Virus record (IMG/VR): IMGVR_UViG_3300043205_000005
Coordinates: 2,532 to 66,531 of that record
Length of the DNA: 64,000 bases
Direction: 5' to 3' (one strand)
Origin: a virus
Taxonomy: Duplodnaviria > Caudoviricetes
A model generated the notes under the pieces. That model was not told the DNA's origin. It was given only the letters and a program-made list of their open reading frames with translations, and did no database searches. The position numbers were made by a program, and so were the translations under genes. Below are positions 1,553 through 58,078 of this stretch, piece after piece. Numbering within the stretch: the first letter of the stretch is position 1; the number at the start of each line of letters is the position of its first letter.

Positions 1553-4500
1553 GCAAGGGCAGTAATACTACTTCAACCTCAACCGCGCCAAACCCGCAGG
1601 CGGCGGCGGCCTATTCCAACATCCTGAATCAAGCACAGCAGGTTGCGGCGACACCTTACAATCCCTATGGGGGACAACTTGTTGCTCCCGTCAATCAGCA
1701 GCAACAAACCGGCATTGGGACGGTCAACCAATACGCGACGGCCGGCGTTCCTTATTTGCAGACTGCGGAGGGATTGCAGCAGGGAGCGGCGAATCCGCTC
1801 ACGGCGGCGCAGATTCAACAATATTATAGTCCTTATCAAGCGAACGTCGTTAATGCGACGGAACAGCAGTTCAATAATCAGAACGCGATGCAGCAGCAGC
1901 AGGTTTTGGGCAACGCCGCCGCGCAGGGGGCGCTTGGTGGTGACCGAACGGCGGTCGCTCAATCTGTTCTTGCGGGACAACAGCAAGCACAGGAAGCACC
2001 CGTTATAGCTGGTTTGGAAAATCAGGGCTACGCGCAAGCTCTACAAACGGCGGGGCAGCAGTTCCAACAGAATCCGGAACAGGCTGCTTATGGAATCGCC
2101 AGCACGGGAAATGCTATCGAGAATGCCGGACTGACCGGAGCAAACGCGCAAGTCGGTGCCGGTACGCTCGAACAACAAACACAACAAGCTCAGGATACGG
2201 CGGCCTATCAGCAATATATGCAGGCGATGCAGTATCCGTTTGCGACGCTTGGATGGGAAGCTGGCTTGGCGAGCGGAGTTGGTTCTCAGATGGGAGGCAC
2301 GAGTCAAACGACCGCGCCCGCACCGAATCAGACGGCGCAATATGCCGGTCTCGCATTGGCTGGCGCGGGAATGTTTTTGAAAGAGGGTGGTCGCGTCAAA
2401 AGTTACGATGGCGGCGGTGCAGCGTTGCCCTATGGCTCGGCGGGAATTGGGTGGGTGCCACAAGTATCAATCACGGGAGGAAGTGGACCTCCCAAGCCTC
2501 CTGGAACCGCCGGAGCACAAAGCGGCGTGCAATCTCCATTGCAGATGGCAGCACAGGCGTCAAATCTCGCGGGTGGATTACAAGGCAAAGGAAAATCCGT
2601 GCTCGGCAATTTGATGCCTGGAAGCCCAAGCTATGGAGGCGGCAACGCGCTCAGCGGCGATGCTTGGGGAGGCAGTGCATCAAGTCCTTTGCCCGGTTTG
2701 GACGCGAGCGATTATGGTGTTTCGGGTTTAGCCGATGCTGGCGCGGGGGCTGCGGATGCAGGTGCTGCAGGTGTGGCAAGTGCCGGGGCCGATGTCGCCG
2801 AAATGTTGCCGATGCTGGCACTCGCAAATCGTGGGGGAAGGATTCATCTGCGGCGCGGCGGCGCTCCCGTGCGTGCCGGTTTAGGCATGGCGTCGTTCAT
2901 GCCACGTCGAAAGTTTGCCTCTGGTGGTGGCGATGACAGCGACGGCGACGTGGTAAATTTTCCGTCCGACCGTTTTGTGCAGCCGCCGGTTCCTGCGGGG
3001 CTTTATAATAATAGTTCCGGTGAAGCGAATCCGCTTGAAAATATTGTAAAGTTTCAGACGTATGGACTTAATTCTCCGTATGTGCCCCAACACTCGTCGT
3101 CTTCGACAGCGAGTGGAACGGCGACGGATCAGGCTGATAACGATAGTGTGCCGCCGCAGATAACCGGAAGGCCACAGCAACAGGCTGGACTTGGAACGTC
3201 GGCGATGGCCTTTCAAGATGATGGGTCACGCAACGCTTCTGTTGCTGCACCACCGGACTCGGTCAACGCTGCGCAAGCGGCGCGGAGCGCTGGGGATGAG
3301 GAAAAGAGTGGAATACATTTTGGCTTGGGGCTGATGTCGCCCGACGCCAAGAGTGCGTTGCTTGCGGCTGGGCTTGGCATGATGGCTTCGCGCTCGCCGT
3401 TTCTCGGGACGGCGATTGGTGAAGGTGGGCTGGCTGGATTATCTGCTTATAGTGGTCTCAAGAACAAAGAACAAGACGTTGACCTGAAAGTTAAGCAGTT
3501 GAATCAGGCGGCGAAGGCGGAGCAGGATCGGATTGCGTTGGAGACGAAGCGCGAGTCCGATTTGTATTCGAAGATGACGCCAGCACAACAGGCCGAAGTT
3601 GAATTCCGGCAGCGCAACTTGGAGCGTGAAAACTTACAGCCCGTCAAAGTTGGCACCGATATGTCCACGGGCACGGATATTTATGCCGTCCGCGATCCGA
3701 CCGCGCCAGGAGGGTTCCGGCGTATCGATCCAGCCTCATATGGTGCGCCTCATGGCACGCCGATGGGGACCGGCGCGCCTGTCAGTTCGGCCGCGCCCAC
3801 GGCGCCCGCTGTGCCGAATAGCGATGATGCAAGCCTGCCGGCTAAATCGACGCCCGTCAGCGGAGATATTCCCGACAACGTGAAGCCGGAAATTCTGGCG
3901 GCGCTCGATCCGAACGTAGCCTCACAGGTCAAGGCACTTGACGAAGGCCGTATGGCGTTTCCGACCGGCTTTGCTTTGTCGAAGCCCTATTGGCAAAACA
4001 TGCTGCGGCTTGTCTCTCAGTACGATCCGTCGTTCGATGCCGTGAACTACAATGCGCGGGCGAAGACGCGGTCAGATTTTGTTGCGGGAAAGTCGGCTCA
4101 AAATATCACATCGTTCAATACCGCCATCGGTCATCTTGATACGCTCGATAAGACGATTGACGATCTTGGTAATACGCGGTTTGGCTGGCTTAATCCCACA
4201 TTACAGTCCGCCAAGTTCGCGATGGGCGATCAATCTTTCCAGGAATCGCAAAAGCGGTTCATGGCGGCTAAACAAGCCGTAACCGATGAATTGACTCGCG
4301 CCTTCCGTGGATCGGGTGGCAACGTTCACGACATTGTCGGGTGGGAGCAAACAATCAATCAGGCAGATTCGCCTGCGGCGCTTCATGCCGCAACGAAGGC
4401 GGCTGTCGATTTGCTACGCAGCCGTATCGAATCCGTGGGGGATCAATACAATCGTGGCATGGGGACGACGCGCGATCCGTTGACGATGCTTTCGCCTCAT

Positions 4501-31105: not shown

Positions 31106-31131
31106 TGCAACCGGCACTGAGGAACCGTGAC
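31088..31131 (-). repeat. Bipartite element, variant C
   Basis: TTGACCGGCATCCGGTGATGCAACCGGCACTGAGGAACCGTGAC; spacing 39. Confidence 0.8.
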
Positions 31132-31575
31132 CCGAACCACTCCCATAACCACCCTCACCCGCAAGCGTGCTTGGGCCTTCCGCAGGGCCGAAACGGTCGG
31201 CAAAGCCTTAGAGCGACTCGAAGGCAAAAAGGAATGGCTCAACGTCTATAATAGGTGGAGGATGTATCTACAGACCGCCGCTCAACTGACGCTGGCGATT
31301 GACGCTGTGAGACGGGAGGAAGAAAAAGAAACGCGAGTGCTGCGAGTATGAGCAATCATCTAGCTTACAAAACCGATCAACAAATAACAGCATTCGTAAT
31401 GGAAACGATGCAAACATTCAGCGCACTATCTTCCTCGGAACGAAGAGACTTGCGCGATGCCCACAGAAGGCGTTTTGTGGATGAGAGTTTGACGGCGAGG
31501 CGGCCCTATGTGTGGCCTTCCTCTTGTCACGAAGCGGAAACGCTGTTTGATAATCTCGATTTTCAAGGGGGATGA
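31127..31575 (+). other. Two small hypothetical CDSs (31127-31351, 31348-31575)
   Basis: Coupled ORFs; the first starts at the GTG of a repeat element. Confidence 0.45.
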
Positions 31576-52189: not shown

Positions 52190-52849
52190 ATGAAAATATT
52201 CACAGTAGGTGCCAAATGCCACGCTCGCATTCTGCGCCGAATCATCATGGCCGAACCGCACGTCGGAGTTCTGCACGAATTTCCCGTAGTTTACGACGCC
52301 GATAAAACAACCGAAGCGCCGTGGTTAAATTGTTTCTTATTTTATGAATTGGATAATGCCATCACCGCCGCCAAGCAGTCGTGTTCTCATTTTATTGTCG
52401 CCATAGGGTCAAACGGCAAGCGCCGCGCCGAACTCTCTGAGCAACTGGTTCGGTTAGGGTTAGAACCCGTTTCCGTCATCCACCAAACCGCCCATATCGG
52501 CGAAGAAACAAAAATCGGCCGCGGCGCGCAAATTCTGACGAACGTGAACGTCGGCGACGAAGTGACGATAGGCGATTGGTGCATGATGCACGCCACAAGC
52601 TCGGTGGAGCATCAAAGTGAAATTGGAAACGGTGTGACGATCATGGCTGGAGCTTCGCTGATGGGCGAAGTGACCGTGAAGGACTATGCGATTATCGGCG
52701 GCCATTCCACCGTCATGAAATCGACGATCGGCGAAGGTGCTACGGTCGGCGCTGGGGCTGTAGTGACGAAAGACGTTCCGCCCGGTCAAACAGTCGTCGG
52801 CGTTCCTGCGGAAAGACATTGGCCGCAGCAGCAAAGGCAGATGGCATGA
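52190..52849 (+). CDS. NeuD/PglD-like sugar O/N-acetyltransferase (hexapeptide repeat)
   Basis: IVAIG..R, SVIHQTA, hexapeptide repeats, GAGAVVTKDVP..VGVPA. Confidence 0.85.
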   Translation: MKIFTVGAKCHARILRRIIMAEPHVGVLHEFPVVYDADKTTEAPWLNCFLFYELDNAITAAKQSCSHFIVAIGSNGKRRAELSEQLVRLGLEPVSVIHQTAHIGEETKIGRGAQILTNVNVGDEVTIGDWCMMHATSSVEHQSEIGNGVTIMAGASLMGEVTVKDYAIIGGHSTVMKSTIGEGATVGAGAVVTKDVPPGQTVVGVPAERHWPQQQRQMA

Positions 52850-53292
52850 TGGGTCATCGTCTTCTCGCGCGTACTCAGTCTCAGTGCGGTCACCCAATCG
52901 CTCGTAATTGGTCGATTTGCGATAGCATCCTCCATCAGTGTTTCGATACTTTGATGTTGGTGGGGCTGCGTGACCGCCTAAGGTGCCCGAACTGTGAAGC
53001 AGTCGGGACATGGAAACCACATGGTGGATGGTGCGATTTGCTGAGCGATTGTCTGCCGAACGAAAAAACCAAAAAATTCTTTGCGCTCTTGGCCAAGACT
53101 GGCGCGCGCTATGCGACAGAGCGGCGATGGGTCTGCAAATACTGCGGCTTTACCCACGATATAAGCGGCACCCACATGGGTGCTCCGAACGGCAAGACGA
53201 AAGTGTGGGATGGCATTTGCGCCGATAGTCTGCCTACGCCTAAAGAAGCCGTTGAAAAACTTTGCGGTTCGGCTTGGCCATGGAGAGGATGA
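52846..53292 (+). CDS. Cys-rich hypothetical protein
   Basis: CPNC and CKYC pairs. Confidence 0.45.
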   Translation: MMGHRLLARTQSQCGHPIARNWSICDSILHQCFDTLMLVGLRDRLRCPNCEAVGTWKPHGGWCDLLSDCLPNEKTKKFFALLAKTGARYATERRWVCKYCGFTHDISGTHMGAPNGKTKVWDGICADSLPTPKEAVEKLCGSAWPWRG

Positions 53293-53428
53293 TGTCAGAC
53301 CGCCGCACCAGATACCGAAACGGCGCCTGCTGGCGCCGGGCTCAATTCTTTCGTGCGACATACGTCAGTTTGTGGATGGAACAAGATTGGGTGTGGCGCG
53401 TTGCCCCTTAGCATTAGGAGATTTGGTC

Positions 53429-53608
53429 ATGTCACGCGGTTTACTTTTTTGGGTTATATGGGTCATCTGCGTTTTGATTTGGGCCGGCGTTAATTTCGGC
53501 GGCATGGGCGGTCAGTACGCCGCACACATGGCCGGCGGCGGCGTCATCGAGTTCGTTTTGTTTGGACTGCTCGGCTGGCAGGTATTTGGTCCCGTTGTCC
53601 ACGGTTAG
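53429..53608 (+). CDS. Small two-TM membrane protein
   Basis: AGGAG RBS; hydrophobic ends. Confidence 0.6.
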   Translation: MSRGLLFWVIWVICVLIWAGVNFGGMGGQYAAHMAGGGVIEFVLFGLLGWQVFGPVVHG

Positions 53609-53727
53609 GATAAACTGGCCGCTCATTGGCGTCATCGGCGCCGGCGTCGTTTTGGCCTGTTTACTGACTTGGATAACGTCGCTGATCTGGCCGCCACCAC
53701 ATCCGTTTTTCTGGTAAACGACGATGG

Positions 53728-53770
53728 GTGACCGAGTCCGGCGCCAATCCCACGAAGGCCCTCTCGTGAC
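53728..53770 (-). repeat. Bipartite element, long form (reverse)
   Basis: GTGACCGAGTCCGG...GAAGGCCCTCTCGTGAC; spacing 38. Confidence 0.9.
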
Positions 53771-53857
53771 CCAAACACTTGTCCACACCTTCCTCAAAAA
53801 GAATCTCTTGACGGCTTTCAAAAAATAGATTCAACATACGAGACATTCAAAGAGGCT

Positions 53858-53955
53858 TCCCCCGCGCCGGGGGATTGACCCTCTCCATCTGACCAAGCCG
53901 CGCCGGTTTGGTTCCACCCTCCCACACTCTGGCAGCGCCTGCCGGGTCGGGTCAA
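53858..53955 (+). ncRNA. Structured leader with three GCGCC-loop hairpins
   Basis: TCCCCC-GCGCC-GGGGGA; ACCAAGCC-GCGCC-GGTTTGGT; GGCA-GCGCC-TGCC; closing helix TTGACCC/GGGTCAA. Confidence 0.6.
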
Positions 53956-53977
53956 AAACCCCGCTCGGAGTCCTGCC

Positions 53978-54583
53978 GTGGCAAACACGCAAGCGACATT
54001 TGGTTTCAAGCACCAGGGCTATCTGTCCGGGGGTGCTCCCGATTATCAACTTTCCAGCTATGCCATCCAATCCACGAACGCTTCGACGATTGGTTTTGGT
54101 GATGCTGTTATTGCCGCAAACGCTACCTCGGCCTTCATCGTCCAGGCCACGGGTGCCCTTTCAACTACCACTCCGCTTATCGGCATATTCCAGGGCTGCG
54201 AATATATCCCGTCAGGTGGAGGCGCCCCGCAGTGGTCGCCGTACTATCCCGGCAATACGGCCCAGAACGCCACGGCCTACGTCATCGACGCGCCGAACGC
54301 CAAATTCCTTGTAGCTGCGCTTAATACCGCAATCGTGTCCACCAACATCGGCAACGTCATCAACTTCACGACCGGCGCCTGCGCCACGGTCGGCGGCGGC
54401 TTCGCGGTCGCGACCATCGATCAATCGACCGCAACGACGACGGGCACAACGGCGTCTTTCCTTCCATTCCGAATCCTCGGACTCTACCCCGGCGTCGGAA
54501 ACGGTTCCGATCCGACCACCCCATACAACTGGGCCATCGTCGGCTTCAACTTCCAGATTCACCGCAGCAACGTCGGCAACTAA
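53978..54583 (+). CDS. Capsid decoration / minor capsid protein
   Basis: MANTQATFGF..GDAV; directly upstream of the MCP region. Confidence 0.6.
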   Translation: MANTQATFGFKHQGYLSGGAPDYQLSSYAIQSTNASTIGFGDAVIAANATSAFIVQATGALSTTTPLIGIFQGCEYIPSGGGAPQWSPYYPGNTAQNATAYVIDAPNAKFLVAALNTAIVSTNIGNVINFTTGACATVGGGFAVATIDQSTATTTGTTASFLPFRILGLYPGVGNGSDPTTPYNWAIVGFNFQIHRSNVGN

Positions 54584-54594
54584 GGGGAACGACA

Positions 54595-55158
54595 ATGGCT
54601 GATCCAATCGTTGACCCGCTCGCACCGCCGTCCCCTCCTGCGCCGGGAACCGTCGGGCCTGTCGTTACTCCGGCCACCCCGTCGATTTTTTCGCAACCGA
54701 CAGCGCCTCCGGCTGTTCCATCGGCGCCGATTACTCCCCCTGCTCCTGTCGAACCAACAAAACCAAAGGCGGCTTATTTGATCGTTGAGCCTCTGGAAAC
54801 TCCGACATCGGAAATCCCTGTCGCTGACGGCAAAACCATCCCACCCGGCAAGGAACAAATCGTCGCAACAGGCGACCTCACTGTCGTCATGGTCAAGACG
54901 ACTGGTTCGGTGAGGGTGCATCGGTGGAATGGTGTCAAGCTACCAAAAGACGCGGCCGATCTTTCGGTCGTCGAAGTTCATCGCGACCCGGCCTCAACTG
55001 GTCCGGATGTCGCGGTGTTTCCGAACAAAGACGAGCGAATCGGAACGCTCCCGGTCAACGACGGCAAAAACTCCAGCGCATGTGCAGTCGGAGTCGGATC
55101 AAACAAACCCGTTTCATTCCGAAAAATGTCAAAGACCCTTTGGGTCGTTATCTCATAA
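54595..55158 (+). CDS. Pro-rich hypothetical protein
   Basis: GGGAA RBS; Pro/Thr-rich N-terminus. Confidence 0.5.
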   Translation: MADPIVDPLAPPSPPAPGTVGPVVTPATPSIFSQPTAPPAVPSAPITPPAPVEPTKPKAAYLIVEPLETPTSEIPVADGKTIPPGKEQIVATGDLTVVMVKTTGSVRVHRWNGVKLPKDAADLSVVEVHRDPASTGPDVAVFPNKDERIGTLPVNDGKNSSACAVGVGSNKPVSFRKMSKTLWVVIS

Positions 55159-55169
55159 GGAGCAGATAA

Positions 55170-56084
55170 ATGCCCGTCGCACTTGCTAATATCCGCTCCG
55201 AACTCCTGCCTGGCCTGTTCGATGTCAGGGGTTCCTATGACATGATCCCGCGACAGTGGGACAAGGTCTTCACCACGCACAAATCGAACATGGCGGTCGA
55301 ACGCTCCACGCAGATGGCCTTTGTAGCTCTGCCGTATCTGAAAGACGAGGGCGCAGCGACTCAGTTCGACAACAACGCTGGTGAAAGATTTACTTGGGCA
55401 TTCGTGCATCTGGAAGTCGCGCTCGGCTACGCCATCACCCGCAAAGCCATCGACGACAATCTTTACAAGGCGCAATTCAACCCAACGAATCTGAAACTGC
55501 AAGAAGCCTTCGCGCAGTTCAAGGAAATACAGGGCGCCAACATTCTCAATCTTGGTACCACGTACCAGAATTCCATCATCGGTGATGGCCAGGCTTTGTT
55601 CTCTGCGTTGCATCCCTACGACGGTGGCACGTGGGCCAATACTTCAACTACGCCCAAGAGCTTGAACGAATCGACGCTGCTTGCCGATATGACGAATGTC
55701 AGAACGCAGTTCGTCAACGAACGCGGCCTGCGTATTCTATCTCGTGCAAGGCGCCTTGTCGTTCCACCGAACCTCGAACCCATCGCGATCCGCCTCACCA
55801 AGACGGAATTGCGCCCCGGCACCGCCGACAACGATGTGAATGCCATCCTGACATTGTCGGGCGGTCTGCCGGAGGGGTTCATTGTGTTGGACTTCCTTAC
55901 GTCCAATTTTGCGTGGTTCCTCACGACGAATATTGAGGGGCTGATTCACATGCTCCGGATTCCTTACGAGAGCGATATGTGGGTTGATAATGTGACCGAC
56001 AATCTTCTCGTCAAGGCCTATGAACGTTACAGTTTTGGCTATAATGATCCTCGGGCAGCCTGGGGCGAATTTCCAACTTCATAA
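55170..56084 (+). CDS. Major capsid protein (Mu gpT-like, HK97 fold)
   Basis: IRSELLPGL..KDEGAATQFDN..ALGYAITRKAIDDNLY..ERYSFGYNDPR; AAGGAG RBS. Confidence 0.85.
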   Translation: MPVALANIRSELLPGLFDVRGSYDMIPRQWDKVFTTHKSNMAVERSTQMAFVALPYLKDEGAATQFDNNAGERFTWAFVHLEVALGYAITRKAIDDNLYKAQFNPTNLKLQEAFAQFKEIQGANILNLGTTYQNSIIGDGQALFSALHPYDGGTWANTSTTPKSLNESTLLADMTNVRTQFVNERGLRILSRARRLVVPPNLEPIAIRLTKTELRPGTADNDVNAILTLSGGLPEGFIVLDFLTSNFAWFLTTNIEGLIHMLRIPYESDMWVDNVTDNLLVKAYERYSFGYNDPRAAWGEFPTS

Positions 56085-57423: not shown

Positions 57424-57750
57424 ATGAGCGGAAAATCTCGTTTACAGCGCGCCAAAGGTGGCCGCACTGGTTTGGTTGCATCTGGGAATCCGGATGTGAT
57501 CAAGGAGGCCGAAGGCAAAGAAGAATACGCCAAGGGAGATGAAAGAAAGCGCGGCGGTCGTGCCAAGAAAAAGAACGGTGGTAAGGTCATTGGGCTCATG
57601 ACTGGCGGTGGTGTGAAACCTCGGCTGGATCGTCCTGGTCGCAAGCGTGGTGGGGCTGTGGGAGCGGATAGGTCTCCGCTGTCGAGTGCTCATTCTCATG
57701 CGAAGGCTGGGTCGGCTCCTGCGGAGGAAGAAGGCGGAATGCCGGATTAG
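57424..57750 (+). CDS. Basic GG-motif protein
   Basis: Five xxGG motifs; stop TAG overlaps a repeat element. Confidence 0.55.
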   Translation: MSGKSRLQRAKGGRTGLVASGNPDVIKEAEGKEEYAKGDERKRGGRAKKKNGGKVIGLMTGGGVKPRLDRPGRKRGGAVGADRSPLSSAHSHAKAGSAPAEEEGGMPD

Positions 57751-57814: not shown

Positions 57815-58078
57815 ATGAAGCTGACAGCAAAGAAACGAAACTCGCTGCCAGCTTCTGATTTTGCGGGGCCGGGAAGGTCTTATCCGGTGAATAATCTGAG
57901 TCACGCTCGTAACGCCTTGGCTCGTGCGAGTGGCAACGCCGGACCTGGACTAAAAGCAAAAATTCGCGCCAAAGTGCATAAAAAATTTCCCGGCATCAAA
58001 CAGCACGACGAATCGCGGATGAAAATGGACGGCGGCGCGGTCAGGCACCGTATGGATCGAGCGCCGCGCAAACACTAG
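57815..58078 (+). CDS. Basic hypothetical protein
   Basis: RSYPVNNLSHARNALARA; MDGGAV motif. Confidence 0.55.
   Translation: MKLTAKKRNSLPASDFAGPGRSYPVNNLSHARNALARASGNAGPGLKAKIRAKVHKKFPGIKQHDESRMKMDGGAVRHRMDRAPRKH

Follow-up and report, generated by a model that had tools for sequence, protein, structure and literature searches.

Control of late genes in double-stranded DNA phages is known mostly at the level of transcription, and to our knowledge RNA-level operators for structural genes are rare, being known from a few model phages only. In phage Mu, translation of the mom gene is activated by Com, a zinc-finger protein, with a single hairpin as its site. In lambda, the boxB hairpin is a protein recognition site that recruits N, and the N leader combines boxB with a downstream helix which limits translation; the put RNA of HK022 acts on RNA polymerase directly. 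The leader of T7 gene 10 precedes a capsid gene. Translational operators have been described for structural and replication genes of several phages, such as the coat-replicase operators of MS2 and PP7, those of T4 gp32, RegA and gp43, and scaffold autoregulation in P22 is a related case (PMC3014915). A survey of IMG/VR has further listed thousands of unnamed candidate RNAs, some of them upstream of phage genes, and five of these candidates lie upstream of a major capsid protein family (PMC10690425).

The leader that we analyse here is well supported as a new RNA motif, a family of this familiar general kind. We found no description of its motif in the literature, and it may be among the candidates of the IMG/VR survey (PMC10690425). 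The window, by which we mean the whole stretch of DNA that was analysed (64,000 nucleotides), makes up most of a 66.5 kb IMG/VR record with an estimated completeness of 98%. Terminase and portal genes lie at 38-43 kb of the window. The leader hairpins sit further 3', inside a 370-nt gap that has a sugar cassette on its 5' side and head genes on its 3' side. The features of the gap and its 5' border are as follows.

5' of the gap: amino-sugar cassette, including genes for a DegT-type aminotransferase and for a hexapeptide acetyltransferase.
53626..53654, plus strand: putative terminator-like hairpin with a T-rich tail, from a consensus scan only.
53808..53837, plus strand: putative sigma-70-type promoter, with -35 box TTGACG (53808-13), an 18-nt spacer and a weak -10 box CAACAT (53832-37).
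53851-55/53880-84, plus strand: outer helix of hairpin 1 (P1), the whole of P1 being 53851..53884.
53858-63/53869-74, plus strand: inner stem of P1, 6 bp, with loop GCGCC at 53864-68.
53891-99/53905-13, plus strand: hairpin 2 (P3), 9 bp including 2 G-U pairs, with loop GCGCC at 53900-04.
53914..53928, plus strand: C/U-rich, G-free linker, read from the sequence and resembling an anti-Shine-Dalgarno segment.
53929-34/53940-45, plus strand: hairpin 3 (P4), up to 7 bp including 2 G-U pairs, with core GGCA/UGCC and loop GCGCC at 53935-39.

The terminator-like hairpin follows the last gene of the sugar cassette and would part the upstream operon from the leader's promoter. A basic ORF of 142 aa, also upstream (53180-53608), is retained in the closest relatives only. 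The leader is about 135 nt long, spanning the stretch from the sigma-70-like promoter to the GTG at 53978; it is probably transcribed from this promoter of its own, with a predicted start near 53844. A stricter promoter scan made no call at 53808-53837.

A repeat also occurs here. It consists of a GTCACG-type end, about 27 nt, and then an invariant 13-mer, and it is found genome-wide: one copy at 53698-53771 (minus strand) lies 37-110 nt 5' of the -35 box of the leader and faces away from it, and further copies on the plus strand are at 3253, 7086, 9477, 13527, 25708, 29159, 35819, 40687, 45251 and 57778. The 13-mer has 11 matches against 0.25 expected, and most copies stand 20-60 nt before genes. 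The closest relative (L002/L018) has the same repeat copy in the same place.

The three hairpins were first pointed out in an earlier note on this DNA, which read them as identical GCGCC loops on different stems. Both the positions and the loops are confirmed by our analysis, hairpin 2 extending somewhat further (53891-53913), and the distance of 22 nt between the end of the structure (53955) and the GTG start (53978) is correct as well. The note had also proposed that TTGACCC (53875-81) pairs with GGGTCAA (53949-55) and so encloses hairpins 2 and 3. The two segments are indeed complementary, but a conserved enclosing helix had to be rejected, as 55% of its cells are paired in the window's clade, the same as in shuffled alignments; its 3' half belongs to a small hairpin instead, which shows a compensatory change from U-A to C-G.

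The clustering of such hairpins is easy to illustrate. The plus strand has 177 GCGCC words, 5 of them in a hairpin of at least 4 bp, and 3 of these 5 are in the leader, which means 3 GCGCC-loop hairpins in 90 nt versus 2 in the rest of the 64 kb. For the wider loop class R-N-G-C-Y on stems of at least 5 bp, the leader accounts for 3 of the 7 plus-strand cases in 64 kb. RNAfold forms P1 and P3, pairing the loop G with C so that a CGC triloop is left; P4 is missing from the minimum-energy fold of the window and a longer helix takes its place. The z-score of the whole leader is modest (-2.06).

Relatives were gathered with the 201-aa protein of the first head gene as a query and then with a protein alignment as a query, which gave 16 and then 80 viral loci, together with 23 metagenome loci; their identity to the 201-aa protein is 30-86%. 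A large protein collection holds 423 homologues of this protein, none of which is named. Since a search of 185,579 prokaryote genomes returned no copy, and thus no prophage, the relatives look like uncultured lytic phages of about 65-72 kb. A phage database returned one capsid match, a distant one. In about 40 distinct related phage contigs the homologous gene is preceded by a leader built in the same way. The phage group that carries it is often met in metagenomes from soil and freshwater, and it includes no cultured phage.

The layout of the leader is shared among these phages. Nearly all relatives have a non-coding stretch of 125-190 nt before the decoration-like gene. Of 33 distinct relatives, 29 have a TTGAC box placed 158-221 nt ahead of the start codon, and a varied TA-rich hexamer follows this box after 17-19 nt. 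After the box and the hexamer come P1 with conserved flanks and an optional second hairpin, then P3, a pyrimidine-rich linker, P4 and finally a helix containing the Shine-Dalgarno sequence. The P3 loop is 70-84 nt and P4 about 43 nt before the start codon, and the number of hairpins of the leader type varies from 2 to 4. The linker, which corresponds to 53914-53928 in the window, is retained too as a pyrimidine-rich segment, and it may have a role.

The stems show covariation. RNAalifold, run on a plain MAFFT alignment of 21 sequences covering P3 to the start codon, predicts P3 and P4 independently, with two-sided changes in 10 of their 12 pairs. In this alignment 87.7% of cells are paired versus 67.3% after shuffling, and the covariation is 0.565 versus 0.19; none of 500 shuffles is as high, and sliding the partners by 1-3 columns lowers the value to 0.15 or less. 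A covariance model built from the same alignment finds 27 leaders, 7 of them outside the seed, and all 27 are on the sense strand, directly 5' of a decoration-like gene. The alignment of these 27 sequences is 88.8% paired with a covariation of 0.628 (taken together, 0.57-0.63 for the real alignments against a range of 0.18-0.19 for shuffles). Two-sided changes occur at 7 of 7 pairs of P3 in the 27 sequences and at 4 of 5 pairs of P4, where 89-93% of cells are paired. P1, aligned with MAFFT in 21 relatives and folded with RNAalifold, has 6 pairs, 5 of them with compensatory changes.

The same tendency is visible within the window's own clade, where the outer helix of P1 co-varies, the stem of hairpin 1 alternates between a C/G-rich version and a C-U/A-G version, and one member (L021) has a wholly different stem in hairpin 2 with an identical loop. 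The covariance model has a single match in the window and one in each of 4 related genomes that are near-complete, and every one of these matches precedes the decoration gene. The excess of G-U over A-C pairs is slight (15 to 10 and 6 to 4), so the strand is assigned mainly from the context. The original suggestion of a structured leader ahead of the capsid genes is supported, with the leader on their sense strand. It was also suggested that no known Rfam family could be assigned, and the searches bear this out: no match reached the gathering score in the whole window, no relevant match appeared at E up to 10 in 52500-55500, and in 16 related loci Rfam 15 had nothing up to an E of 0.1.

The stems vary, and the loops keep a common pattern. 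According to the model-based alignment, the P3 loop reads R in 27 of 27 sequences, then N, G in 27 of 27, C in 24 of 27 and Y in 25 of 27; for P4 it is R in 24 of 26, N, G in 27 of 27, C in 25 of 25, and N. The loop G of P1 is nearly invariant among 21 relatives. Of the perfect pentaloop hairpins, 50 of 84 in the leaders read xxGCx, versus 60 of 781 in the DNA on either side of these leaders, that is, 60% versus 7.7%. Many relatives have loops of the A-A-G-C-C or A-C-G-C-C types, whose first and last bases cannot pair, and hence these are true five-base loops. The earlier idea of identical loops on unrelated stems holds in the form of a class, R-N-G-C-Y, which is kept on co-varying stems in about 40 relatives, as one would expect of repeated recognition sites. 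A mutual-information scan of the alignment revealed no column that co-varies with the variable loop positions, so that nothing points to an RNA partner of the loops. Whether the loops pair with the start codon and Ala codon was inspected by eye, and the idea was set aside, as there is no co-variation.

Some distant loci deserve a mention. In L076, which has 32% protein identity, three hairpins of the UCCC-GCGCC-GGGA type with loops GCGCC or GCGCU occur at 1426-1509. In two other clades, among the loci L062-L064 and L065-L084, the last 125 nt before the gene contain a repeated 8-nt loop with GGCG in it, and in these clades the Shine-Dalgarno sequence and start codon lie inside a long GGCA...UGCC hairpin.

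We turn to the region of translation initiation, for which two further features are needed.

53931-47/53963-77, plus strand: alternative closed helix predicted by RNAfold, with an inner hairpin at 53949-52/53958-61.
53967-70 and 53978-80, plus strand: Shine-Dalgarno GGAG and GTG start codon; homologues share the N-terminus M-A-N-T.

The closed helix is an imperfect duplex of 18 bp, which pairs the GGAG and excludes P4. RNAfold gives it -28.1 kcal/mol versus -23.0 kcal/mol with P4 enforced, so that the closed form is better by 5 kcal/mol. In the clade of 9 sequences 94% of its cells are paired; variation in the clade is small, and 10 of 500 shuffles reach this figure too. The changes seen are G-C to A-U, G-U to A-U and U-A to C-G; they are two-sided at 2 pairs only, and the covariation for this helix is thin.

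The ribosome-binding site of the decoration gene has a mean unpaired probability of 0.17, the second lowest of 54 sites in the window, and the sites of the next two genes have 0.53 and 0.43. In 43 relatives the median is 0.28 versus 0.39 for the next gene (Mann-Whitney p 6e-5, the sequences not being independent). In every relative examined, 8-16 of the 17 bases of the site are paired in the lowest-energy fold. In all members of the window's clade 9-11 nucleotides of the site pair into the P4 segment; few relatives do this outside the clade, where a separate local hairpin covers the site. As predicted by folding, occlusion of the site is general across the family and the P4 switch is clade-specific. 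Because the competition between P4 and the Shine-Dalgarno sequence is confined to the window's clade, such a switch cannot be the mechanism of the whole family. As for the start codons, those of the homologues are GTG, TTG or ATG. In many clades the start codon of the decoration gene is GTG or TTG (at 53978 in the window, and in L006-L014 and L043-L056), and the next genes start with ATG and have strong, open Shine-Dalgarno sites.

The head operon itself consists of a decoration gene, an optional cement-like gene and the major capsid gene.

53978..54583, plus strand: decoration/cement-like gene, the first of the operon, 201 aa.
54595..55158, plus strand: gene of 187 aa, weakly cement-like by structure.
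55170..56084, plus strand: major capsid protein gene, with a weak match to Mu gpT and to the PHROG 'major head protein'.

The first product had been labelled a decoration protein, and the label holds at the level of the fold. Pfam has no family for this protein. An AlphaFold2 model based on an alignment of 60 sequences (pLDDT 85) has phage decoration, cement or head-fibre base proteins as its top 18 structural matches, with Z of 6.4-8.4 over 120-148 aligned residues for the best eight and a best Foldseek E-value of 3e-3. These Z values are moderate, for which reason we take the decoration/cement identity as fold-level support and nothing beyond it. The gene of 187 aa is missing from L018, L021 and L023, in which the decoration and capsid genes are adjacent, and the N-terminal 60 residues of its product are unmatched in closer relatives. 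The major capsid protein is 92-98% identical in relatives whose decoration protein is 55-86% identical (L003, L018, L021, L023, L032 and L055), a striking difference in rate for adjacent genes. At its end the head block encodes two small, very basic proteins on the plus strand, at 57424-57750 (pI 10.4) and 57815-58078 (pI 11.7).

In our opinion there is about an even chance that the head operon has, in this element, a structured 5' leader RNA which acts in cis and carries repeated loop sites for a trans-acting factor. Stems that co-vary, a loop G-C that is invariant on three hairpins and single-copy synteny together point to repeated RNA recognition sites, and a covered ribosome-binding site together with frequent weak start codons points to translational control of the first cistron. 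The translational operator proposed in the earlier note fits the occluded ribosome-binding site. The packaging or assembly RNA proposed there as an alternative has nothing in its favour, this being a double-stranded DNA phage with terminase genes.

The proposed mechanism can be put as follows. The repeated loops would be recognition sites for one trans-acting factor, most likely a dimeric or oligomeric RNA-binding protein encoded by the phage or its host, and its binding would alter the expression of the first head gene or genes post-transcriptionally. In the window's clade a natural route would be a switch between P4 and the helix that buries the Shine-Dalgarno sequence: the two are mutually exclusive, and so the site would become accessible once a factor holds P4. 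The first hairpin, close to the 5' end, would probably stabilise the message as well. One may go further and speculate, by analogy with Com, that the R-N-G-C-Y loops form a multivalent operator on which a new class of RNA-binding protein activates translation of the decoration gene late in infection by holding P4. We regard this more specific version as tentative and rather doubtful; if true, it would mean a Com-like circuit of translational activation for structural genes in hundreds of uncultured soil and freshwater phages.

As to what the factor might be, one candidate considered was the decoration protein itself, since such proteins mostly form trimers and the leader has three loops. This autoregulation was set aside: the protein is acidic (pI 5.3), it is unlikely to bind the RNA because it has only 4 Lys+Arg in 201 residues, and relatives have anything from 2 to 4 hairpins. 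Pfam found no RNA-binding family in 20 early or regulatory genes, and Pfam with PHROG found no RNA-binding regulator among the neighbouring genes and these 20. A Com-like zinc-finger protein was not found by Pfam among the 30 proteins scanned, nor was a CsrA-like gene among the genes scanned. A basic ORF of 74 aa at 31127-31351 (plus strand, pI 10.9) encodes a product rich in Arg near its N-terminus, with a Trp in the same stretch, which bears a loose resemblance to the arm that binds RNA in lambdoid N proteins.

It is possible to explain much of the leader without any dedicated factor, namely as an element that stabilises or processes the mRNA, its 5' hairpins blocking decay that depends on the 5' end, or as an RNase III site, where cutting of the long 3' helix would free the ribosome-binding site as in the lambda N leader. 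We consider this unlikely. Such a role would be in keeping with the start of P1 only 0-10 nt past the predicted transcription start in most relatives (the 5' end being a predicted one), with G+C-rich, stable hairpins, with an operon that encodes the most abundant virion proteins and, as regards cleavage, with the imperfect 18-bp duplex of the closed helix. It leaves unexplained, however, why an invariant G and a near-invariant C are kept in the loops of three hairpins while all stem positions vary, and why the loop bias is 60% versus 7.7%. An occluded ribosome-binding site and a GTG start also oppose maximal expression.

Another explanation is that the hairpins serve processive antitermination, in the manner of a nut or put site, and either recruit an antiterminator or act on RNA polymerase, so that terminators in the long late operon are read through. 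The element stands just 3' of a promoter and heads a long operon on the same strand, its pentaloop hairpins recall boxB, many relatives have a short U-rich run 3' of P3, and the Arg-rich ORF mentioned above could be seen as an N-like candidate. In spite of this we find antitermination quite improbable. Each genome has one site, with none at other operons; there is no conserved boxA-like element, and the loops differ from the GNRA-like type of boxB. Downstream, terminator-like sites number 12 versus 12.7 in shuffled sequence, and the Arg-rich ORF has a homologue in only 1 of 5 related genomes.

It could also be that RNA alone is at work. GC is self-complementary, and loop-loop contacts could therefore conserve GC in the loops, with no visible covariation and no protein involved; contacts through GC or GCGC would compact the leader, which might act, for example, as a sensor of temperature, a metabolite or the ribosome. 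In the window GCGC would offer four potential kissing pairs between any two loops, and the ribosome-binding site is structured. Nevertheless, we hold this to be very improbable, since five-nucleotide loops are small for stable kissing, and the A-A-G-C-C and A-C-G-C-C types of many relatives share just two self-complementary bases. Moreover, no co-varying long-range pair was detected, nor was there any sign of a conserved pocket of unpaired bases such as ligand-binding RNAs typically have. Finally, although each hairpin is an inverted repeat near a promoter, operators or cruciforms in the DNA bound by a transcription factor at the head promoter are extremely improbable, because the arms differ among sites and relatives with complementarity kept, the reverse of what a sequence-specific binder needs, because the sites lie 50-130 bp downstream of the -35 box, and because the G-U pairs of the window's stems are mismatches on the opposite strand.

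Given the reading that we prefer, a leader with repeated recognition sites for a trans-acting factor, the motif deserves attention for several reasons. It precedes the most highly expressed genes of this phage group. If a cognate protein exists, the two would make a compact orthogonal RNA-protein module and would show how these phages time or balance the synthesis of capsid proteins. If there is no protein, the motif is still useful as an annotation marker for the start of head operons.

A comparison with the known systems makes the position of this leader clearer. With the ompA 5' UTR and the T7 gene 10 leader it shares the general arrangement of a long structured leader, with a hairpin near the predicted 5' end, in front of a very highly expressed gene, but these stabilisers do not depend on a conserved loop sequence, and the ribosome-binding site stays open in them. 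Lambda N-boxB resembles it in that a hairpin with a pentaloop stands in the leader RNA of a phage, not far past a promoter. The loop is nevertheless of another type, R-N-G-C-Y with an invariant G3 and a near-invariant C4 as opposed to the GNRA-like G-A-A-A-A; unlike in lambda nut, no conserved single-stranded element precedes P1, P3 or P4 except for the pyrimidine-rich linker, and there is one site per genome, with three tandem hairpins, at the head operon and not at early operons.

The operators of MS2, T4 and P22 likewise exert post-transcriptional control via a specific site on the RNA, at or close to where translation is initiated. Those are single sites which usually overlap the start codon, and for most of them the binding protein is encoded by the regulated gene itself or by a neighbour, whereas the sites of this leader are 35-115 nt upstream and the product of the first gene looks unsuited to RNA binding. 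The leaders regulated by CsrA/RsmA resemble it in having several hairpins with the same loop motif near a covered ribosome-binding site, an arrangement that would fit bridging by a dimer; their loops contain GGA, which is absent here, the invariant bases being G-C. Mu Com-mom differs in that there are three same-loop hairpins in our leader, and no protein like Com was recognised. What the two have in common is a hairpin just 5' of a helix that buries the ribosome-binding site of a late phage gene and, in the window's clade only, a predicted mutual exclusion of this hairpin (P4) and the Shine-Dalgarno helix.
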